Part shown: positions 30,210-39,414 of the stretch, one piece after another
Position numbering within the stretch: position 1 is the first letter of the stretch
Layout of the letters: every line of letters starts with the position of its first letter
Origin: Patescibacteria group bacterium
GTDB lineage: Bacteria; Patescibacteriota; Patescibacteriia; Patescibacteriales; UBA12465
Direction: 5' to 3'
Assembly: GCA_041651355.1 (NCBI GenBank)
Contig: JBAZJK010000001.1
Coordinates: forward strand, 165,883 to 229,882
DNA: 64,000 nucleotides
Position numbers and translations under genes: made by a program
Notes under the pieces: generated by a model
The model's database searches: none
What the model was told of the DNA's origin: nothing
What the model saw: only the letters and a program-made list of their open reading frames with translations

Positions 30210-32933
30210 ATGGGTTTACTCAGCAAAATAATGGGCGATCCTAATGTCAAGATCATTAAAGGAATGAAGCCGATTTTAGATAAGATCAACGCTTTGGAAC
30301 CAGACTTGCAGTCTTTATCCGATGAGGCACTAAGAGCCAAGACCCCAGCCCTTAAACAACGCTTAGAAAAAGAAACTCTAGACGATATTCTGCCCGAAGC
30401 TTTTGCCGTAATCAGGGAGGCGGCTCGAAGAATATTGGGCCAGCGACATTATGAAGTGCAATTAATCGGCGGCATCGTTTTGCATCGCGGCCAGATTGCA
30501 GAAATGAAGACCGGTGAAGGCAAGACTTTAGTGGCCACCCTGCCTTTGTATCTTAATGCTTTAAGCGGAAAAGGAGTTCATTTAGTAACCGTTAATGATT
30601 ATTTGTCGCGAGTCGGTGCCGGCTGGATGGCTCCAGTCTATCATGCTCTCGGGCTGTCTACTTCCGTCATTATCCATGAGAATGCCTATATTTATGATCC
30701 TGAATATATTGATGAAACCCAATTCGATTCTCGTCTGCAGCATTTTCGCCGCCTGCCGCGCCGGGATGCCTATCGCTGTGATATTACCTATGGCACTAAC
30801 AATGAATTCGGTTTTGATTACTTGCGGGATAATATGGTTGGGAGTCTGAGCCAGACTGTCCAGCGTCCTCTTAATTACGCGATCGTCGATGAAGTTGATT
30901 CGATTTTAATCGATGAAGCGCGTACCCCGCTCATTATCTCTGCTCCAGCTGAAGAATCTACCGACCGCTATTTTAAATTCGCCCAGCTGGTGGAAAGGTT
31001 GGAAGAAAATGAAGATTATAATGTCGACGAGAAGATGAAGGCGGCGACCCTGACGGAAAATGGCATCGCTAAGATGGAAAAATGGTTGGGAGTGGAAAAT
31101 ATCTATATCGCCGGCGGAGTCAAAGAAGTCCATCATATGGAGCAGGCCCTTAAGGCTCGGGTGCTTTTCAAGAAAGATAAAGATTATGTCGTCAAAGACG
31201 GCGAAATCATCATCGTTGATGAATTCACCGGCCGTTTGATGCCCGGTCGGCGCTATAGCGAAGGCTTGCACCAGGCGATTGAAGCTAAAGAGGGCGTGAA
31301 GGTCCAGAAAGAATCCCAGACGATGGCGACGATTACTTTCCAAAATCTTTTCCGTTTATATGATAAATTAGCCGGCATGACCGGTACGGCCGTAACCGAG
31401 GCAGAAGAATTCCACAAGATATATAAATTAGATACGATCGTTATCCCAACCCATAAGCCGAATATCAGGCAGGATGCTAACGATTTGATCTATCGGACCG
31501 AAGAGGATAAGTTCAAGGCGGTCATTCGTGATATCAAAGAACGTAACCAGAAGGGCCAGCCAGTGCTCGTCGGCACCATTTCAATCGAAAAGAATGAAGT
31601 CTTAGCGGATATGATGGAAAGAGAGGGCTTACATCCCGAAGTCCTTAATGCCAAGAACCACCTTAAGGAAGCTCAAATCATCGCTCAGGCCGGCAAGCGT
31701 GGTGCTATAACTTTAGCGACTAACATGGCGGGCCGCGGCGTCGATATTATCTTGGGTGGCAATCCGCCGGAAAAAGAAGAGCAGGCGGCCGTCCGGGAAT
31801 TAGGCGGTCTGCATGTTATCGGTACCGAGCGCCATGAATCCAGGCGCATTGATAACCAATTGCGCGGTCGGGCGGGACGCCAAGGCGATCCTGGTTCTTC
31901 GCAATTCTTCGTCTCTACCGATGATGATCTGATGAGGATTTTCGGGGGCGATCGCATGCGCAATCTGATGAAGACCTTACGGGTGCCGGCTGATGTGCCG
32001 ATTGAGAATCGGATGATTTCTCGCTCTATCGAATCCGCCCAGAAGAAGGTTGAGGGTAATAACTTTGATTTAAGAAAACACTTGGTTGAATATGATGACG
32101 TGATTAACAAACATCGCGAAGCTATCTATCGCCGCCGCCGGGAGATTTTGGAAATCGGCGAAAAAAATAATGAAGCCCCCGATGAGAACGGAGAGGCTAG
32201 GACTTTAGGTGATATCGTTTTAGAGATGGTCCAGGGAGAAATCATGGCCGTGGTGAATTTCCATACGGCCGGCGACCAGATTGAGGGCTGGAATGTGACT
32301 GAAATCTATGAAACGATGCGTAGCCTTTTTAACGCCGAGCCCGGTCTTCGCTTAGAACTGGAAAAGATCGCTAAAGGTGATGGTCATAAAGACAAGCTGC
32401 GCCAGGAGATGATTGATAATCTAATAAGCGCCAGCCGGGAAGCCTACGCGGAATTAGGTGATAAGTTTAAACAATCTAATATAGATTTTTCTGAAGTGGA
32501 AAAAGGTGTGCTCATCCGTTCGATCGATCAGATGTGGGTGGAACATTTGGAAACCATGGATTATCTCCGCCGCGGCATCGGTTTAAGAGGCTATGGACAA
32601 AGGGATCCTTTGGTAGAATATAAAAAAGAGGCCTATCGCCTCTATCATGAGTTAAATGACTTGATCCAGAAACAGATTGTCTATTCTATCTATAAGACTG
32701 CGGCCGCTTTAGCGGCTACCCCCAATTTAGTCAGTCTCATGGCTGAAGGTGAGAGCGAGCGGCCCCTAAATTTCCAGGGCGCGGCCAAAGAGATGGATAG
32801 ACAGGCAAGAAATAATGATACGATTGACCTGGTTAAGGAGAAGGTAAAAGATGAAAGCGGCCATAAGGTCGGCCGGAACGACCCTTGTCCTTGCGGTAGT
32901 GGGAAGAAGTATAAGCATTGCTGTGGGAAATAA
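30210..32933 (+). CDS. secA: Preprotein translocase ATPase SecA
   Basis: 907 aa with full-length SecA motifs (MKTGEGKTLV, DEVDSILIDEARTPLIIS) and a C-terminal zinc motif CPCGSGKKYKHCCGK. Confidence 0.97.
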   Translation: MGLLSKIMGDPNVKIIKGMKPILDKINALEPDLQSLSDEALRAKTPALKQRLEKETLDDILPEAFAVIREAARRILGQRHYEVQLIGGIVLHRGQIAEMKTGEGKTLVATLPLYLNALSGKGVHLVTVNDYLSRVGAGWMAPVYHALGLSTSVIIHENAYIYDPEYIDETQFDSRLQHFRRLPRRDAYRCDITYGTNNEFGFDYLRDNMVGSLSQTVQRPLNYAIVDEVDSILIDEARTPLIISAPAEESTDRYFKFAQLVERLEENEDYNVDEKMKAATLTENGIAKMEKWLGVENIYIAGGVKEVHHMEQALKARVLFKKDKDYVVKDGEIIIVDEFTGRLMPGRRYSEGLHQAIEAKEGVKVQKESQTMATITFQNLFRLYDKLAGMTGTAVTEAEEFHKIYKLDTIVIPTHKPNIRQDANDLIYRTEEDKFKAVIRDIKERNQKGQPVLVGTISIEKNEVLADMMEREGLHPEVLNAKNHLKEAQIIAQAGKRGAITLATNMAGRGVDIILGGNPPEKEEQAAVRELGGLHVIGTERHESRRIDNQLRGRAGRQGDPGSSQFFVSTDDDLMRIFGGDRMRNLMKTLRVPADVPIENRMISRSIESAQKKVEGNNFDLRKHLVEYDDVINKHREAIYRRRREILEIGEKNNEAPDENGEARTLGDIVLEMVQGEIMAVVNFHTAGDQIEGWNVTEIYETMRSLFNAEPGLRLELEKIAKGDGHKDKLRQEMIDNLISASREAYAELGDKFKQSNIDFSEVEKGVLIRSIDQMWVEHLETMDYLRRGIGLRGYGQRDPLVEYKKEAYRLYHELNDLIQKQIVYSIYKTAAALAATPNLVSLMAEGESERPLNFQGAAKEMDRQARNNDTIDLVKEKVKDESGHKVGRNDPCPCGSGKKYKHCCGK

Positions 32934-32981
32934 ATTATTTTTATTCTTTATAAAAAATTTAACTTTTCTTAATGATGGTTT

Positions 32982-33002
32982 TGCTATAATGATTGGTATA
33001 AT
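32982..33002 (+). promoter_or_regulatory. Two tandem extended -10 elements (TGCTATAAT and TGGTATAAT)
   Basis: Located at 32982-32990 and 32994-33002, 19-31 nt upstream of the ATG at 33021. Confidence 0.6.
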
Positions 33003-33020
33003 TTACTAATCATTAAAACT

Positions 33021-33857
33021 ATGAAAAAAGAAGAATCTAAAAAAGAAATCGCCCTTTTTTCTGGGCAAGAAATCAGGCGTTCTTGGAATGAAGCGGAAGA
33101 GAAGTGGTATTTTGCGGTAGTCGATGTGATAGCCGTATTGACTGGAAGTGCTGATCCTAATGACTATTGGTATAAGATGAAAATTCGTGTTAAGAGCGAG
33201 GCCGGAGTTGAGTTATCGACAAATTGTCGAAAACTGAAATTTTTAGCTAAAGATGGCAAATATTATTTATCCGATGCCGCCGACACGGAGACAGTTTTCC
33301 GTATCATCCAGTCTATCCCGTCTCCTAAAGCTGAGCCATCCAAGCTTTGGTTAGCTCGGGTCGGTTATGAAAGAGTCGAAGAGGTTGAAGATCCGGAAAA
33401 GGCCATCCAGAGGGCAATGGCGACTTATTTAAAGAAAGGTTATTCTAAAGAGTGGGTTGACTTAAGACTGAAAAGCATTGAAATCAGGAAAGATTTAACT
33501 AATGAATGGAGCGCTAGAGGAGTTAAGAATAATGAGTTTGCTATTCTTACTGATGATATCACTTTTGCTTGGGCCGGAATCAAGGTTAAGGATTATAAGA
33601 AGATAAAAGATTTAAAGAAGGAGAATTTACGGGATAACATGACTAACTTGGAATTAGTCTTGAATATGCTGGCGGAAACTTCTACGACTGAAATTTCCAA
33701 GAAAGAATTGCCTGACACTTTTTCCAAGAATAGAAAGGTTGCCAAAAAAGGCGGCCGAGTGGCTGGCAAAGCTAGACAGGAATTAGAAAAACAGCTTGAT
33801 CGCTCGGTTATTTCTAGAAATAAGTTTTTACCGGCCGAGAATAAGAAGCTAAAATGA
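33021..33857 (+). CDS. Bro-N domain / DinD-like (DNA-damage-inducible protein D family) protein
   Basis: The N-terminus FSGQEIRRSWNEAEEKWYFAVVDVIAVLTG is Bro-N-like. The C-terminal part (NLRDNMTNLELVLNMLAETSTTEI..., KKGGRVAGKARQELEKQL) resembles E. coli DinD in architecture. Confidence 0.6.
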   Translation: MKKEESKKEIALFSGQEIRRSWNEAEEKWYFAVVDVIAVLTGSADPNDYWYKMKIRVKSEAGVELSTNCRKLKFLAKDGKYYLSDAADTETVFRIIQSIPSPKAEPSKLWLARVGYERVEEVEDPEKAIQRAMATYLKKGYSKEWVDLRLKSIEIRKDLTNEWSARGVKNNEFAILTDDITFAWAGIKVKDYKKIKDLKKENLRDNMTNLELVLNMLAETSTTEISKKELPDTFSKNRKVAKKGGRVAGKARQELEKQLDRSVISRNKFLPAENKKLK

Positions 33858-33875
33858 AATATCCTGAGAAATAAT

Positions 33876-34397
33876 ATGCAAATAAATGTCGGTTCGAAAA
33901 ATCCCGTTAAAGTTCAAGCCTTAGAAGAGATTCTTTCAGATTATCCTGATTTTAAAGGAGCGGAGTTGACTATAGTGGAAACACCCTCTGGAGTTAGCGA
34001 CCAGCCGAAGTCTTTGGACGAGACCGTGCAAGGGGCTATGAATCGAGCTAAGAATTCATTTAGTAACTGCCAATATAGTTTCGGGATGGAATCAGGCTTG
34101 ATGGCTGTTCCTAACACCAAATCAGGTTATATGGATGTTTGTGTTTGTGCTATCTTTGATGGAGAAGAATATCATCTTGGCCTGTCTTCAGCCTGGGAGG
34201 CGCCCAAAAAAGTAACTGAAATGATGTTGCGCGAAGGCTTGGACATGAACGACGCCGCCTATCGCTCTGGCTTCACCGATAATCTGAAGGTCGGGTCAGC
34301 CGAAGGTTTGGTTGGCATCATGACTAAAGGTAGGTTGACTAGGAAAGAATACACCAAAGAAGCTATCAGAACCGCCCTCATTCATGTGGAGAAATAA
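33876..34397 (+). CDS. yjjX: Inosine/xanthosine triphosphatase (YjjX family non-canonical purine NTPase)
   Basis: VGSKNPVKVQAL, SGVSDQPKSLDETVQGAMNRAKN, FGMESGL, GIMTKGRLTRKEY. These are collinear with E. coli YjjX. Confidence 0.85.
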   Translation: MQINVGSKNPVKVQALEEILSDYPDFKGAELTIVETPSGVSDQPKSLDETVQGAMNRAKNSFSNCQYSFGMESGLMAVPNTKSGYMDVCVCAIFDGEEYHLGLSSAWEAPKKVTEMMLREGLDMNDAAYRSGFTDNLKVGSAEGLVGIMTKGRLTRKEYTKEAIRTALIHVEK

Positions 34398-34409
34398 TTT
34401 AAAATAATT

Positions 34410-34871
34410 ATGACTGAAGCAAATAAAGATTTGAGGCCGCGTGGCGGTGTTGGTGTTTATATCATCAATAATCAGAAAGAAATTCTTCTGCTTTTGCGGG
34501 CGGCCACGCACGCCCCTGGTTTCTGGTGTCCGCCTGGAGGCCACATCGAATACGGTGAGAGTTTCTTTGATTCAGCGGCCAAAGAAGCCAAAGAAGAAGC
34601 GAATATCGACGTCGCCGAGATTGAAGTGATGGGCGTAACCAGCGATGTTTATCAAACCGAAACAAAACACTATATAACTGTACATCTCAAGGCCTTAAAA
34701 TATAGTGGCCAGGAAAAGCTGATGGAGCCGAATAAGTTTGCCGATATCAAATGGTGGCCCCTAGCTGATTTGCCAGAGAATATTTTTCCAGCTGTGAGGA
34801 ATTTTTTAGAAACGAATCCGGTCTGCCTTTGCGGCAGTGGTAAGAAATATTTAGAATGTTGTGCAAAATAA
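34410..34871 (+). CDS. Nudix hydrolase with a C-terminal SEC-C zinc motif
   Basis: Nudix box GGHIEYGESFFDSAAKEAKEEANI and C-terminal CLCGSGKKYLECCAK. Confidence 0.85.
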   Translation: MTEANKDLRPRGGVGVYIINNQKEILLLLRAATHAPGFWCPPGGHIEYGESFFDSAAKEAKEEANIDVAEIEVMGVTSDVYQTETKHYITVHLKALKYSGQEKLMEPNKFADIKWWPLADLPENIFPAVRNFLETNPVCLCGSGKKYLECCAK

Positions 34872-34872
34872 T

Positions 34873-35139
34873 ATGGCAATTATTAATAAAAAAATTTGGC
34901 CGGAATATTTTGAGCCAGTAGCCTCAGGCAAGAAAAAATATGAGTTGCGCCTCAATGATTTTAAAGTTCAGGAGGGCGATGTTTTAGTGCTCGAAGAATG
35001 GGATCCAGCTACTAAAGAATACACAGGCAGAAAGACCGAAAAGAAAGTAAGCTACGTCGGGGAATTTAGGATAGACGATTTATTTTGGCCAGAAGACCAG
35101 ATTAAGGAAAAAGGTATTCAAATTATTTCCTTAGAATAA
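34873..35139 (+). CDS. ASCH / DUF3850-type PUA-like small protein
   Basis: KKIWPEYFEPVASGKKKYELRLNDFKVQEGDVLVLEEWDP..EYTGR. The ATG lies 1 nt after the upstream stop. Confidence 0.7.
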   Translation: MAIINKKIWPEYFEPVASGKKKYELRLNDFKVQEGDVLVLEEWDPATKEYTGRKTEKKVSYVGEFRIDDLFWPEDQIKEKGIQIISLE

Positions 35140-35140
35140 T

Positions 35141-35461
35141 ATGCAATTTAACGATCTAAAAGAATTTATTAAAGAAGAAGACAAGCGTTTGCGCGAGCGT
35201 TATGGTAATTATATCGATGATGAAAAGCGCATCTTAGCTAGAACCGTCAAGATTACGGAAGAATTAGGAGAATTATGCGATGAAGTTTTGAGTTTTAGTT
35301 CTTTGCAACGGCAAGATAAGCTGGATAAGCATGATCGGAATAATTTATCCGACGAGTTTGCTGACGTAATTATCACTACACTCCTGTTAGCTGATACTAT
35401 GGAAGTCGATATCGAGCAGGCTCTAGAAGATAAGATTAAGAAGATAAGGTTAAGGAGCTAA
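35141..35461 (+). CDS. MazG-like all-alpha nucleotide pyrophosphohydrolase
   Basis: ITEELGELCDEV and EFADVIITTLLLADTMEVDIEQALEDKIKK. Confidence 0.8.
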   Translation: MQFNDLKEFIKEEDKRLRERYGNYIDDEKRILARTVKITEELGELCDEVLSFSSLQRQDKLDKHDRNNLSDEFADVIITTLLLADTMEVDIEQALEDKIKKIRLRS

Positions 35462-35465
35462 GGAT

Positions 35466-35912
35466 ATGATACATGAGGATACCTTTAAAGAAGTAGATTT
35501 CAATGGTGCTAAGGGAATAGTTTTCTTGGGCGATAAAATGCTGGTCTATCGTCGTGATGATAAAACCAGTGATTCGCCCCTATGTCTTGATTTACCCGGC
35601 GGGGGACATGAGGTTAGTGAATCGCCCTTTGCTACTTTCCAGAGGGAAGTGAAGGAAGAATTCGGCCTCGATATCGAAGGAGAAGAAATTGAATTTTCCT
35701 GCACCATCCCGAGCGTAATGACGCCGGAGAAAAAATCCTTCTTTATAGTCGCTAAAGTTAAAAATTCTGGGCCTGAAGATATCGTCTTCGGCAATGAAGG
35801 CGTCGAATGGTTTCTGATGACTCCCGAGGAATTTATCGCTCATCCCGATGGCATTAAGCGCCAGCAGGAGAGGGTGGGGCAGTACCTATCAGGCAGCTTG
35901 GTTTCCGTATAA
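35466..35912 (+). CDS. Nudix hydrolase
   Basis: Nudix box GGGHEVSESPFATFQREVKEEFGL. Confidence 0.85.
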   Translation: MIHEDTFKEVDFNGAKGIVFLGDKMLVYRRDDKTSDSPLCLDLPGGGHEVSESPFATFQREVKEEFGLDIEGEEIEFSCTIPSVMTPEKKSFFIVAKVKNSGPEDIVFGNEGVEWFLMTPEEFIAHPDGIKRQQERVGQYLSGSLVSV

Positions 35913-35942
35913 TCTTCAAAGTAATATAAAAAGTTTAAAAAT

Positions 35943-36245
35943 ATGACAGCAGGAGAACAATTTAGCTTAATACCGGAGTTTGAAAAAGCCGATCGTGACG
36001 CCCGTAGCGAAGCGCAAGCTGAAGCCGCGCAAGATCGCGAAGAAGAAGAGAAGAAGATACAGGAAACTTTAAACCGTGGAACTTGGGAGGCCGAATTAAA
36101 AGCCCTTGATGATGAAAAACGCGCGGAAGAAATTGCCGCGGCCGAAAAAAAGTTGCATGATCTCTATGAGAAAGATGATCCTTGGTCAGACATTAATTCC
36201 CCGATTACTAACGAAATCTTGAGATCTAAGAAGAGAAAACGTTAA
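35943..36245 (+). CDS. Acidic coiled-coil hypothetical protein (100 aa)
   Basis: ORF rich in E, A and K. It is the last gene of the operon and I recognise no family. Confidence 0.5.
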   Translation: MTAGEQFSLIPEFEKADRDARSEAQAEAAQDREEEEKKIQETLNRGTWEAELKALDDEKRAEEIAAAEKKLHDLYEKDDPWSDINSPITNEILRSKKRKR

Positions 36246-36246
36246 G

Positions 36247-36282
36247 CAAATTTAAAAGCGCCGTCTTCTGCTTTTAAATTTG
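36247..36282. other. 13-bp perfect palindromic hairpin immediately after the stop codon
   Basis: CAAATTTAAAAGC (36247-36259) / GCTTTTAAATTTG (36270-36282) with a 10-nt loop. It is mutually exclusive with the 12-bp pairing AAAGCGCCGTCT (36255-36266) / AGACGGCGCTTT (36311-36322). Confidence 0.7.
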
Positions 36283-36443
36283 GAAACAAACCTAAGAAAT
36301 AAAGCAAAAGAGACGGCGCTTTAGAGAAGGAACGACACAACCAGTCGAACTTACTGAACATAAATAAATCAACAAAGCAGGTTAAATCAATACATGGCAA
36401 ACTGACAAAACATAAACGAAAGCATCTGAAAAGACTGGTTGTT
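36250..36443 (-). ncRNA. Candidate ~190-nt small RNA (class unknown)
   Basis: A minus-strand promoter lies just upstream. The predicted 5' end ACAACCAGTC (36442-36433) pairs with GACTGGTTGT (36346-36337). The GC-rich 12-bp stem near the 3' end is followed by TTTTAAATTT on the minus strand. Confidence 0.35.
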
Positions 36444-36449
36444 ACCTAT

Positions 36450-36479
36450 ATTATATACTATAGCCTGTTTATAAGTCAA
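36450..36479 (-). promoter_or_regulatory. Near-consensus sigma70 promoter on the minus strand
   Basis: Minus-strand TTGACT, 18-nt spacer, TATAAT. It points away from ileS into the intergenic region. Confidence 0.5.
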
Positions 36480-36504
36480 ATCTATTAAAAATTTATCAAT
36501 AAAT

Positions 36505-39414
36505 ATGCAGACTGAGCCAAAAAAGACGAATGATAATTCTTTTCCCAAGATGGAGGAACAAGTCCTTGATTTTTGGGCAAAGCATGACATTTTTAATAAA
36601 AGCTTGCACCAAGAATCGCCCCGAGGAGATTATGTTTTCTATGATGGCCCGCCTTTCGCTACCGGTACCCCCCATTACGGCCATATTGTGGCGAGCATCA
36701 TGAAAGATATTATCCCACGTTACGCCACCATGCGCGGCTATCACGTCGACCGCAAGTGGGGTTGGGATTGCCATGGCCTGCCGATCGAAAATATCGTCGA
36801 GAAAGAACTGGGCACCAAGACTAAGAAGGAAATTATCGATCTAGGCGTAGCTAAATTTAACGACCTCTGCCGTTCTAAGGTCTTAACTTATGTCGATGAA
36901 TGGAAGAAAGTCATCAGCCGCTTGGGCCGTTGGGCGGATATGGATAATGCCTATCGTACCATGGACTTAAGTTTCATGGATTCAATCTGGTGGGCCTTCA
37001 AGCAATTATGGGATAAAGGCTTGATCTATAAGGATTATCGTTCCATGCATATTTGTCCGCGCTGTGAGACGACCCTATCCCAGTCAGAGGTAGCCGAAGG
37101 CTATCGCGATATTAAGGATTTATCCTGTATCGCTAAATTTGAATTAAGCGACGAACCTGGAACCTATATCTTGGCTTGGACGACGACGCCTTGGACGCTA
37201 ATCGGCAACGTCGCCTTGGCGGTTGGCGGAGAAATCGAATATGTGAAAATAAAGCTCGGGTCAGAGTTTTATATTTTAGCCAAAGAACGTTTAGGCGATG
37301 TCTTAAAAGACGCTCAATTTGAAATTACTGAGGAACTGAAAGGCCAAGGCTTGGTCGGGCGTTCATATAAGCCTTTGTTCGATTATTATTTTAAGGATAA
37401 AAGTCTGGCTAATCACGAAAACGGCTGGAAGATATATGCGGCTGATTTTGTCACGACCACCGATGGCACCGGCGTCGTCCATATCGCCCCTGCTTTTGGC
37501 GAGGATGACATGAATCTAGGAAAAGCCTGCCAGTTGCCTTTCATCCAGCATGTCGGCATGGATGGGCTGTTTAAGGCAGAGGTTAAGGATTTTGCCGGTT
37601 TGCACGTTAAGCCCCTGGCCGACCACAGTTCGAGCGATGTGGAGATAATCAAGCATCTGGCGGCCCGTAATTTGTTATTCCATAAAGAAAAGTATGAGCA
37701 TAGCTATCCGCATTGCTGGCGTTGCGATACGCCGCTGATCAATTACGCTACTTCTTCCTGGTTTGTCAGCGTGACCAAGATTAAGGACCAGCTTTTGCAA
37801 AGCGCTCAGAATATAAATTGGTCGCCCAACTATATCAAAGAAGGCCGTTTTGGCAATTGGCTCGAAGGTGCGCGTGATTGGTCGATTTCCCGTCAGCGTT
37901 TCTGGGCTAGCGCTATCCCGATTTGGGAGTGTGAATGCGGTGAGCGCTTAGTCATCTCTTCGGTCGCGGAATTAGAAGCCAAGAGCGGGCAGAAGATTGA
38001 AGATATCCATAAAGATAAGGTCGATCCAATCACTTTCAAGTGTGAAAAATGCCAGGGAACCATCCAACGCATCCCGGATGTTTTGGATTGTTGGTTTGAA
38101 TCCGGCTCCATGCCTTTTGCCCAGCTTCACTATCCGGAAGAGAATAAGGCTAAGTTCGATCAGAACTTTCCTGCCCAGTTTATCGCTGAAGGCTTAGACC
38201 AGACACGTGCTTGGTTTTATTATCTCCATGTTATCGCTGGCGGGATATTTTCTTCACATTCCTACGCTAACGTCTTAGTAAATGGCATTGTCCAAGCCGA
38301 GGACGGTAAAAAGATGTCGAAGCGTTTACAGAATTATCCCGACCCGATGCTTGTCATGGAAAAATACGGAGCTGATGCCTTGCGCGCTTATCTCGCCGCT
38401 TCACCTGTCATGCAAGCCGAAAATATAAATTTCTCAGAAAGGGGAGTGGAAGAATCCTTGCGCAAGAATATCATGGTCTTATGGAACGTCTATCGTTTCT
38501 ATGAAATGTTTGCGGTTGATAAACAGGCAAAAGGAGTAAAAAGCACTAAGGCCTTAGACCTGTGGATCCTGGCTAAATTAAACCTTCTGGTTAAGGAAGT
38601 TACGGAAGCTTTGGAAGCATATAACCTGCCCAAGGCGGTCCGGCCGATAACCGAATTCATCGACGAATTGTCTACTTGGTATCTGCGCCGCAGCCGGGAT
38701 CGTTTTAAATCAGAAGATCAAGATGACAAGCAAGGCGCCTTAGCCACCACTCAATATGTTCTCTCGCAACTTTCTAAGTTAATGGCCCCCTTCATGCCTT
38801 TTATCGCTGAGAATCTATGGCAGAAGGTAAATGGCTACGATTTTAATGATCCTGAGCAATCGGTCCATCTGCAAACCTGGCCTGAATATCAAACGAGCGA
38901 CGCGGTTACGGGAAAAATATTATCCGAGATGGCAAGCGTCCGTGACATTTCCGCTTTAGGCCTAGCTAAGCGGGATGAGGCTGGCATTAAGATTAGGCAG
39001 AAGTTAAGCAAGGTTACAGTTAGCGGTGAAGTGGATCTAAGCGAGGAACTGATTCAAGTTATCAAAGATGAACTCAATATCGACGAAGTGATTATCCGTC
39101 CCGTCTCGGGTGCTCATTTGAAACTAGAGCTTGATACCGAGCTGACTCCGGAATTAAGGCGAGAAGGAATCAAGCGGGAGCTTATCCGTTTCATTAATCT
39201 TATGCGCAAAGAAAAGTCACTCAGCCTAAACGATCGCATTCAGATTTTGTATCAAGGCCCGGATGAACTCAGCCAAGACATTGAAGCGGCCAAGTCGGAA
39301 ATAATGAAAGAGACCTTGGCGGATAGTTTGGAACAAGGAGACTTCGAAGCCGCCGCCGGCAAGACTTTGAAGATCGAAGGACAGGCGATAAACTTATTTA
39401 TAAAAATAAATTAA
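36505..39414 (+). CDS. ileS: Isoleucyl-tRNA synthetase (type-2-like, no C-terminal Zn finger)
   Basis: FPKMEEQVLDFW N-terminus, HIGH-type motif PHYGH, KMSKR, and CP1 editing region. Confidence 0.97.
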   Translation: MQTEPKKTNDNSFPKMEEQVLDFWAKHDIFNKSLHQESPRGDYVFYDGPPFATGTPHYGHIVASIMKDIIPRYATMRGYHVDRKWGWDCHGLPIENIVEKELGTKTKKEIIDLGVAKFNDLCRSKVLTYVDEWKKVISRLGRWADMDNAYRTMDLSFMDSIWWAFKQLWDKGLIYKDYRSMHICPRCETTLSQSEVAEGYRDIKDLSCIAKFELSDEPGTYILAWTTTPWTLIGNVALAVGGEIEYVKIKLGSEFYILAKERLGDVLKDAQFEITEELKGQGLVGRSYKPLFDYYFKDKSLANHENGWKIYAADFVTTTDGTGVVHIAPAFGEDDMNLGKACQLPFIQHVGMDGLFKAEVKDFAGLHVKPLADHSSSDVEIIKHLAARNLLFHKEKYEHSYPHCWRCDTPLINYATSSWFVSVTKIKDQLLQSAQNINWSPNYIKEGRFGNWLEGARDWSISRQRFWASAIPIWECECGERLVISSVAELEAKSGQKIEDIHKDKVDPITFKCEKCQGTIQRIPDVLDCWFESGSMPFAQLHYPEENKAKFDQNFPAQFIAEGLDQTRAWFYYLHVIAGGIFSSHSYANVLVNGIVQAEDGKKMSKRLQNYPDPMLVMEKYGADALRAYLAASPVMQAENINFSERGVEESLRKNIMVLWNVYRFYEMFAVDKQAKGVKSTKALDLWILAKLNLLVKEVTEALEAYNLPKAVRPITEFIDELSTWYLRRSRDRFKSEDQDDKQGALATTQYVLSQLSKLMAPFMPFIAENLWQKVNGYDFNDPEQSVHLQTWPEYQTSDAVTGKILSEMASVRDISALGLAKRDEAGIKIRQKLSKVTVSGEVDLSEELIQVIKDELNIDEVIIRPVSGAHLKLELDTELTPELRREGIKRELIRFINLMRKEKSLSLNDRIQILYQGPDELSQDIEAAKSEIMKETLADSLEQGDFEAAAGKTLKIEGQAINLFIKIN

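Follow-up and report, generated by a model that had tools for sequence, protein, structure and literature searches.

A conserved operon-like unit of predicted nucleotide house-cleaning enzymes between secA and ileS in a CPR bacterium

Gene Content and Organization of the Locus

The genes described here lie in a 64,000-nt stretch of DNA (contig JBAZJK010000001.1; hereafter the window) from a bacterium of the Patescibacteria, also called the Candidate Phyla Radiation (CPR). Seven co-oriented open reading frames (ORFs), g1 to g7, fill positions 33021–36245 of the plus strand and are separated by spacers of 18, 12, 1, 1, 4 and 30 nt, as an earlier note made from the sequence had described them. 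That note saw in the block a stack of four nucleotide pyrophosphatase folds joined by an ASCH protein and preceded by a Bro-N gene, and read it either as a nucleotide sanitation and salvage module or as a module of phage or anti-phage origin. The genes and the elements that flank them are as follows.

32982–33002, plus strand: putative promoter region with tandem extended −10 motifs (motifs read directly, function presumed)
33021–33857, plus strand: g1, a 278-amino-acid (aa) Bro-N protein with a helical C-terminal half (Pfam Bro-N, 28.6 bits)
33876–34397, plus strand: g2, a 173-aa YjjX-type inosine/xanthosine triphosphatase (NTPase_I-T/DUF84; PF01931, TIGR00258)
34410–34871, plus strand: g3, a 153-aa MutT/NUDT1/NUDT15-type Nudix protein with a C-terminal SEC-C zinc tail (PF00293, 1e-21)
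34873–35139, plus strand: g4, an 88-aa DUF3850/ASCH (PUA-like) protein with a GKER-type octapeptide (PF12961, 4e-20; PF04266, 3.6e-6)
35141–35461, plus strand: g5, a 106-aa all-alpha MazG-like (YpjD-type) nucleoside triphosphate (NTP) pyrophosphohydrolase (PF03819, PF12643)
35466–35912, plus strand: g6, a 148-aa divergent Nudix hydrolase (PF00293, 1e-9)
35943–36245, plus strand: g7, a 100-aa acidic Glu/Ala/Lys-rich protein, kept at the same position in the related loci L178, L181 and L090
36251–36325, no strand assigned: long hairpin 3' of g7, AAAGCGCCGTC...GACGGCGCTTT (minimum free energy −32.5 kcal/mol, z = −5.9 against shuffles)

The block is bracketed by secA (30210–32933) and ileS (36505–39414) and sits within a run of housekeeping genes that includes DNA polymerase III delta', RRF, an M50 protease, HPF, a MutS_V-domain (MutS2-like) protein, LemA, M48 and U32 peptidases, RuvA, ProRS and MreB. 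Its GC content is slightly lowered (0.41–0.42 against about 0.45). All Nudix, MazG, ASCH and YjjX ORFs detected by profiles are confined to positions 33876–35912, and the profile scan of the whole window found no further member of these families outside that interval. Co-orientation, conserved spacers of 1–30 nt, a conserved extended −10 motif upstream and a conserved hairpin downstream characterize g1–g7, and terminator-like sites within g3 are at chance level in a generic scan. The earlier note was right to call this organization operon-like, and the seven genes are presumably co-transcribed.

Domain calls are based on Pfam gathering scores, NCBIfam/TIGR cutoffs and PADLOC and PHROG profiles. 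The domain assignments of the earlier note all stand above the Pfam gathering score, apart from the SEC-C tail of g3, which falls just below it (19.8 against 20.4 bits).

Conservation in Close Relatives

The complete order secA-g1-g2-g3-g4-g5-g6-g7-ileS recurs in two independent assemblies, L178 (61.5 kb) and L181, where the spacers measure 1, 11, 1, 1, 1 and 28 nt. Both genomes are clearly diverged from the window. SecA is 93% and IleRS 87% identical, and within the block identity amounts to 73% for g1, 84% for g2, 76–77% for g3, 83–85% for g4, 83–86% for g5, 75–77% for g6 and 66–68% for g7. Synonymous sites are saturated (pS 0.66–0.82), nonsynonymous divergence is low (pN 0.07–0.20), and dN/dS, where computable, is 0.03–0.11 and does not exceed 0.11 in any of the seven genes. 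This combination of saturated synonymous sites and low pN indicates that all seven, including g7, are real genes that purifying selection has kept together. In a fourth relative, L090, the order is g3-g5-g6-g7-ileS. Chance juxtaposition, which would have undone the note's reading, is excluded by the preservation of gene order in diverged relatives and by the confinement of the window's enzyme families to the block.

The last gene of the block is the least familiar. g7 matched nothing in Pfam, NCBIfam, PADLOC or PHROG, and its homologs amount to only three cluster representatives in 1.84 billion proteins. In L178, L181 and L090 it is 66–68% identical to the window copy, with pN of 0.19–0.20 against pS of 0.75–0.81. 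By these measures g7 is a real gene and a clade-restricted orphan.

Beyond the close clade, a SecA-anchored comparison with species-representative genomes gave 60% identity at best, which places the host in a poorly sampled CPR lineage. Among the species-representative loci of that comparison, a single one, from Jacksonbacteria, held any gene of the operon. The closest SecA itself comes from locus L003 (12700–18000; OZ246416.1), which is labeled 'uncultured Gammaproteobacteria', a label that looks doubtful in view of the small size of the chromosome (886 kb) and its CPR-like SecA. Located directly 3' of this secA are large ORFs judged mobile-element-like by eye, without a profile search: a P-loop protein, a replication-like protein and DNA cytosine methyltransferase-like ORFs. 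The position after secA may be an insertion hotspot in the group.

Predicted Activities of g2 to g6

g2 belongs to the YjjX/NTPase_I-T family. It scores 132.2 bits with PF01931 (cutoff 25; 2e-38), clears the inosine/xanthosine triphosphatase model TIGR00258 (121.3 against 117.1 bits), aligns over its full length with the PDB relatives VC0702 and YjjX, and carries the motifs SxNxxK (residues 7–12), DQP and ESG. Activity on inosine and xanthosine triphosphates (ITP/XTP) is predicted. The g2 protein is 84% identical in L178/L181 and 66% identical in the Jacksonbacteria genome, where it also follows SecA.

The two Nudix proteins, g3 and g6, have the features expected of that hydrolase superfamily, and their assignment to it follows from profile scores and catalytic motifs. 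g3 reaches 77.7 bits with PF00293 (cutoff 21.1), and its Nudix box GHIEYGESFFDSAAKEAKEEANI (residues 44–66) shows R→K and G→N replacements while keeping every glutamate. Its PDB matches, ranging from 1e-26 to 1e-12, include 4kyx (a Rickettsia MutT-type Nudix protein, 1e-26), AtNUDX1 and human NUDT15. It remains under the MutT equivalog cutoffs (28.7 against 97.9 bits for TIGR00586; 31 against 148 for NF008044), and probably works like the MutT/NUDT1/NUDT15 enzymes, though not as an equivalog. g6 is more divergent: it scores 38.9 bits with PF00293 (cutoff 21.1), its Nudix box GGHEVSESPFATFQREVKEEFGL (residues 46–68) matches the canonical pattern perfectly, and its PDB matches are weak, for example to ADP-ribose pyrophosphatase (2e-3). 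It is 74–77% identical in L178, L181 and L090.

The SEC-C tail of g3, CLCGSGKKYLECCAK (34812–34871), is conserved in L090. It closely resembles the C-terminal tail of SecA, CPCGSGKKYKHCCGK (32874–32933), encoded 1.5 kb upstream. A recent local duplication of the SecA tail into g3 was considered and found unconvincing, the identity of 39 of 63 nt being too low for such a claim.

g5 shows the hallmarks of the all-alpha MazG group and is predicted to act as a pyrophosphohydrolase. It scores 31 bits with PF03819 (cutoff 22) and 30.6 bits with PF12643 (cutoff 27), its family profile matches the YpjD-type PDB entries 5ie9 and 2gta (Bacillus), and its EExxE (E40-E41-x-x-E44) and ExxD (E72-x-x-D75) motifs are invariant in 29 homologs (alignment A1). 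The family numbers 267 CPR homologs, 63–83% identical among the 120 best, and g5 is the conserved anchor of the neighborhood.

g4 carries the signatures of the ASCH and DUF3850 families, with 72.1 bits for PF12961 (cutoff 22.9), 28.1 bits for PF04266 (cutoff 21.2), a PDB match to 3iuw (2e-5) and a GxKxxExR octapeptide, GKKKYELR, at residues 19–26. The start used here is the ATG that yields 88 aa, as in the homologs; the mechanical ORF list began at an upstream GTG. The family has 1121 matches across CPR, all of about 88 aa and 74–85% identical among the 120 best. GKER-type ASCH proteins remove the acetyl group of N4-acetylcytidine (ac4C), whether the nucleoside is free or part of tRNA, and need both the Lys and the Glu to do so (bioRxiv 10.64898/2026.02.27.708502). 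By analogy with these proteins, ac4C deacetylation by g4 is possible. The absence of g4 in L090 looks cassette-like, the 1-nt gap there being equal to the spacing on both sides of g4 in the window, L178 and L181.

These assignments also bear on an RNA-centered alternative, according to which the Nudix proteins would act on RNA 5' ends (RppH-like decapping or removal of pyrophosphate), the ASCH protein would erase ac4C from tRNA, and the SEC-C tail would tether g3 to the ribosome or SecA. The unit would in that case serve the turnover of RNA and the dynamics of its modification instead of the pool of free nucleotides. Consistent with it, g3 weakly matches RppH models (3e-8), ASCH is a PUA-like, RNA-associated fold whose GKER-type members deacetylate tRNA ac4C in the study just cited, g4 matches phrog_986, annotated 'RNA-binding protein', and the flanks hold translation and secretion genes (secA, ileS, HPF, RRF). 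However, the best matches of g3 are the MutT, NUDT1 and NUDT15 NTP diphosphatases, far above RppH; YjjX and MazG use free NTPs in all characterized cases; and the recurrent partners found in other CPR genomes (NT5C, NDT-like, ribonucleotide reductase) are free-nucleotide enzymes. An RNA-centered role is therefore regarded as quite improbable.

Neighborhood of the MazG-like Gene Across CPR Bacteria

The wider context was surveyed in 83 non-redundant CPR loci anchored on a g5-family gene, with near defined as within 1 kb and far as 2–8 kb. Nudix is the commonest neighboring family, present in 18 of the 83 loci and always co-oriented, and its density is about 15-fold higher near the MazG-like gene (21 in 127.6 kb against 3 in 278.4 kb; binomial p = 1.9e-8). 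ASCH-fold genes number eight near and none far (p = 4.5e-4), and NT5C deoxyribonucleotidase genes four near and none far (p = 0.02). The ASCH-fold partners are not orthologous: an 88-aa DUF3850 protein occurs in the window's clade, and ASCH proteins of 107 and 146 aa occur in L083 and L086. Such non-orthologous displacement suggests functional linkage beyond inherited synteny.

Individual loci illustrate how the neighborhood varies. L128 reads YjjX-Nudix-Nudix-MazG, and L012 (Jacksonbacteria) reads SecA-DUF559-YjjX-methyltransferase-Nudix. In L084, three Nudix genes, a deoxyribosyltransferase-like gene and Fpg surround MazG; L086 has a ribonucleotide reductase in the MazG neighborhood; and L172 combines ASCH, Bro-N, MazG, HD and Nudix. 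Deoxyribosyltransferase-like genes are found in both L084 and L170. Across CPR, the core genes are conserved to the degree expected of housekeeping genes, with 63–85% identity among the matches listed.

Further families were observed around this anchor. A separate Nudix family of about 154–159 aa, shared at very high similarity by Jacksonbacteria and two further CPR genomes (L012 14817–15281, L086 5825–6289, L084 6300–6779; E = 1e-57 to 1e-68), is found in every case in the secA/MazG neighborhood. The window has no member of this family, which may have been the original Nudix partner of the MazG-like gene. An adjacent pair of small proteins with no assigned function (85/89 aa and 113 aa) in L170 (4842–5453) and L172 (7786–8408) is strongly conserved (E = 1e-44 and 1e-65), has no recorded Pfam match and is encoded 3' of either Bro-N or the hydrolases. 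In three g5-anchored loci, an NMD3-family protein (Pfam 4.4e-22; L151 7123–7995) is encoded directly upstream of the MazG-like gene. The NMD3 family is known from archaea and eukaryotes, which hints that some 'CPR-type' MazG homologs (about 59% identical) may reside in archaeal, perhaps DPANN-like, genomes.

A Predicted Nucleotide House-Cleaning Operon

The reading considered probable, with moderate confidence, is that of a chromosomal, vertically inherited CPR operon that co-expresses complementary nucleotide house-cleaning activities. It corresponds to the sanitation and salvage module of the earlier note and is favored by the co-conserved gene order, by purifying selection on the genes, by the CPR-wide linkage of MazG to Nudix, ASCH and NT5C, and by the presence of ribonucleotide reductase and Fpg within or beside the equivalent neighborhoods of relatives. 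The part of that proposal which names substrates stays at the level of prediction. CPR bacteria are thought to live on nucleotides obtained from hosts or the environment; pathways for making nucleotides de novo are generally missing from them, and they rely on salvage.

The proposed mechanism would begin at the extended −10 motif at 32982–32990, which probably drives g1–g7, with translation of g3, g4 and g5 coupled through TAA-N-ATG junctions. g2 would clear deaminated purine triphosphates (ITP/XTP), and g3 oxidized or otherwise aberrant ribo- and deoxyribonucleoside triphosphates ((d)NTPs) such as 8-oxo-(d)GTP. g5 would hydrolyze other non-canonical (d)NTPs to nucleoside monophosphate and pyrophosphate, and g6 would act on another nucleoside-diphosphate-X substrate. 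g4 might bind or de-modify modified cytidine, for example N4-acetylcytidine, either as the free nucleoside or in RNA, while g7 would serve as a clade-specific accessory protein. Acting in parallel on different contaminants, the enzymes would allow scavenged nucleotides to be safely reused.

A number of observations weigh against this sanitation reading. The stretch between secA and ileS comes in at least seven versions in genomes whose SecA proteins are 62–93% identical: L093 holds MazG alone, and L170 holds a Fic gene, a cell-wall hydrolase, Bro-N, small unknowns and an NDT-like gene. g4 is absent in L090, where the g3 stop is followed by 1 nt and the g5 start (L090 300–310, corresponding to window 34869–35143), and in Moranbacteria and Dojkabacteria g1 is unlinked to the hydrolases and lies among unrelated genes. 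A recognizable nucleotide-related neighbor is present in just 22 of the 83 loci. Among the PDB matches g6 has no close characterized relative, and g4 is a member of the shorter DUF3850 branch (3iuw), which lies outside the assayed ASCH proteins. In generic scans for promoters and terminators, the numbers of predicted sites were no different from chance, and the extended −10 motifs went unrecognized. Finally, substrates, co-transcription and physiological role are all deduced from sequence, the substrates being guesses from family membership.

The variability of the interval leads to a second explanation, syntenic accretion, in which a permissive secA–ileS spot gathered independent small housekeeping genes, several of them hydrolases by coincidence, that are co-transcribed only for economy. 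The range of contents described above speaks for it, as do the precise presence or absence of g4, the unrelated genes in the interval (Fic, cell-wall hydrolase, unknowns) and the short spacers found everywhere in compact CPR genomes. Against accretion, the enrichment of Nudix, ASCH and NT5C around MazG holds also where MazG is not beside secA and is measured against a distance-matched background; the non-orthologous displacement of ASCH genes is hard to explain via drift; and the neighborhood content is thematically coherent (YjjX, ribonucleotide reductase, Fpg, NDT-like, HD). Accretion is thus judged rather unlikely. The seven genes do not make up a fixed 'system'; of the known forms of this flexible neighborhood, the window operon is the richest.

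g1 and the Question of a Phage or Defense Module

The first gene of the block stands somewhat apart from the hydrolases. The earlier note had called its product Bro-N/DinD-like, and the Bro-N part is borne out (28.6 bits, cutoff 25.6), while the likeness to DinD is weak and limited to the C-terminal half: the DinD equivalog NF008573 is matched at 22.7 bits against a cutoff of 242, over residues 143–256 only. Much stronger matches are found to PADLOC PDLC04920 (PDC-S13; E = 2.9e-120, full length) and to phrog_15286 (1e-109). The best match of an AF2 model (pLDDT 76.6) is full-length Deinococcus DdrC (Foldseek E = 2e-5, probability 1.0, TM 0.36–0.49, 12–14% identity), a DNA-binding protein of the DNA-damage response; this agrees with the weak likeness to DinD. 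The family has at least 8000 homologs and is 70–81% identical across CPR.

Identity of g1 homologs to the window copy is flat, at 71–81% over a range of SecA identity from 51 to 93%; close relatives (SecA 93%) share 73%, and distant ones share up to 81%. This flatness is explained by the structure of the alignment, in which a near-invariant core (about residues 75–250) is accompanied by a segment (about residues 40–70) that occurs in a few discrete allelic forms. The pattern suggests recombination or diversifying exchange of that segment. The allelic segment lies inside the Bro-N domain, one example being 'NDYWYKMKIRVKSEDG-ELST' against 'YW--LK-RLK-EGSEVVTK'. In three g1-homolog contexts of the wider clade the gene also lies between secA and ileS. 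The idea that g1 is a recently acquired mobile add-on, to which the flat identity might point, was rejected as the sole explanation because of these three contexts and the invariant core with its allelic segment. A 278-aa gene after SecA in L086 has the same length as g1, yet is not a homolog. g1 is best described as a DinD/DdrC-like protein with its own conserved promoter motif, predicted to bind DNA and with no role assigned; it shares the locus in the window's clade but probably has a function separate from that of the hydrolases.

g1 is also the main reason to consider an anti-phage or phage-derived module, in which a DinD/Bro-N-like sensor would act with hydrolases that deplete nucleotides or destroy modified phage dNTPs or signaling nucleotides. 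Besides the strong PDC-S13 match of g1 and weak PDC-S07 matches of g3 and g6, this alternative can draw on phrog_15286, on four unannotated short faecal 'Bacteriophage sp.' contigs in phage GenBank records that carry g1 homologs of 45–60% identity, and on the flat identity and mosaic allelic segment of g1. The interval varies like a defense hotspot: in L170 it contains Fic, and in L083 a gene for a PemK toxin lies upstream of secA. Phages commonly encode DUF3850, MazG and Nudix domains (PHROG matches; bioRxiv 10.1101/2025.10.10.680097).

Yet the PDC families are 145 'guilt-by-embedding' candidates without tested function, picked because their homologs occur within BREX, DISARM or type I restriction-modification loci (bioRxiv 10.1101/2024.01.29.577857). 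The window shows no integrase, nearby tRNA or att-like repeats (its sole tRNA lies at 2412–2497), no significant flanking direct repeats were found at the block, and no known defense genes flank it within the window. The neighbors secA, ileS, HPF, RRF, RuvA and ProRS are not those of a prophage or integrative element. Scans of 2.9 million viral contigs with g1, g4 and g5 (family alignment) returned no close relatives. The hydrolases, with dN/dS of 0.02–0.09, are conserved at housekeeping level, unlike typical defense genes. The phage or anti-phage reading, which had been offered as one of two, has little support for lack of mobile-element hallmarks and close viral relatives, and it is assigned a low probability.

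A dual role can also be imagined, in which g1, as a near-universal DinD/DdrC-like DNA-binding protein of the PDC-S13 type whose allelic segments exchange rapidly, and the hydrolases would form a 'nucleotide gatekeeper', peculiar to scavenging CPR bacteria, that both sanitizes imports and destroys modified phage dNTPs or cytidine derivatives. It is given a very low probability. If true, it would amount to constitutive pool-level restriction of modified-DNA phages, a defense principle not yet described.

Putative Control Elements and the g7–ileS Spacer

Upstream of g1, both tandem extended −10 motifs reported by the earlier note are present, TGCTATAAT at 32982–32990 and TGGTATAAT at 32994–33002, 19–39 nt 5' of the g1 ATG. 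The first (TGnTATAAT) is also kept in L178/L181, and the second is degraded there. Since the sigma-70 scan was at chance level, the promoter function of these motifs is putative. Within the block, the junctions at g3/g4 and g4/g5 read TAA-T-ATG, and similar AAUAAU-AUG contexts precede g2 and g3. These stop/start junctions suggest translational coupling.

At the other end, the hairpin at 36251–36325 is conserved in four loci and shows one UA↔CG compensatory pair. It is the probable end of the transcription unit. The T-run beside it is better on the minus strand, and the hairpin is possibly bidirectional.

The spacer between g7 and ileS (36246–36504, 259 nt) drew attention in its own right. Aligned with its counterparts in L178 (5444–5721), L181 (5487–5761) and L090 (1417–1691), it is 81% column-identical at the DNA level, despite saturated synonymous sites in the flanking genes. 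It contains a 10-bp long-range helix, in which ACAACCRGTC (36337–36346) pairs with GACYGGTTGT (36433–36442), with a G:C→A:U compensatory change in the window. A strong promoter-like sequence, TTGACT-18-TATAAT, lies on the minus strand at 36479–36450; read along this strand, TTTTAAATTT comes after the hairpin. The spacer motif is confined to the close clade, and an Rfam scan of 32500–36800 gave nothing meaningful, the best match being PreQ1-III (E = 0.76) within the g3 coding sequence. The spacer may represent a novel ileS leader or an antisense-oriented minus-strand small RNA of about 190 nt.

Comparison with Known Systems

g1 shares with DinD, DdrC and PDC-S13 proteins an N-terminal Bro-N/winged-helix-like domain and a helical C-terminal half. 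The sequence match to DinD is weak and far under the equivalog cutoff; the fold match to DdrC is full-length, but TM and identity are low; and the profile match to PDC-S13 is very strong, PDC-S13 being a candidate family only. Unlike a sporadic defense gene, g1 is near-ubiquitous in CPR and 70–81% conserved, and this near-universal DinD/DdrC-like protein is flagged here for attention.

Phage nucleotide-metabolism modules draw on the same domain families, and ParB-CTPase-DUF3850 fusions occur in prophages (bioRxiv 10.1101/2025.10.10.680097). In contrast to such modules, g1–g7 lie between core chromosomal genes and are not accompanied by phage structural, integration or replication genes, and the closest homologs of the window genes are chromosomal CPR genes.

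The ac4C amidohydrolases of the YqfB/TthASCH type resemble g4 in the ASCH fold signature and in the GxKxxExR motif with its essential Lys and Glu. YqfB uses the catalytic residues Lys-Thr-Glu, including Thr24 of its GKTR octapeptide (PMC6972931), whereas g4 has Glu at the Thr24 position (GKER type) and so lacks the YqfB-type residue set. The recurrence of non-orthologous ASCH proteins beside MazG and Nudix genes gives the DUF3850 branch a testable context, that of modified cytidine nucleotides or nucleosides.

The closest parallel to the sanitation operon is offered by the classical house-cleaning NTPases, namely MutT, YjjX and MazG of E. coli and the YpjD-type proteins of Bacillus. The families and catalytic motifs are alike, and so is the presumed logic, in which non-canonical (d)NTPs are hydrolyzed before polymerases use them. 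In model bacteria such genes are, as far as we know, scattered singly, whereas here four of them are stacked with an ASCH protein, and probably coupled in translation, in one conserved operon-like CPR unit. The earlier note knew of no described system with four such folds and a modified-base-binding domain, and searches of the accessible literature likewise turned up no description of the operon, of the CPR MazG-Nudix-ASCH linkage or of a PDC-S13 function. Should the enzymes prove generic and redundant, the finding would shrink to an unusually tidy genome organization. The locus and the CPR-wide linkage point to a defined group of small proteins, easy to express, through which nucleotide-pool hygiene in CPR bacteria, a largely unexplored subject, can be approached. 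Nothing at the locus contradicts current understanding. The enzyme families are known and ordinary, while their stacked and conserved arrangement is new and unusual and recurs in looser forms across CPR.

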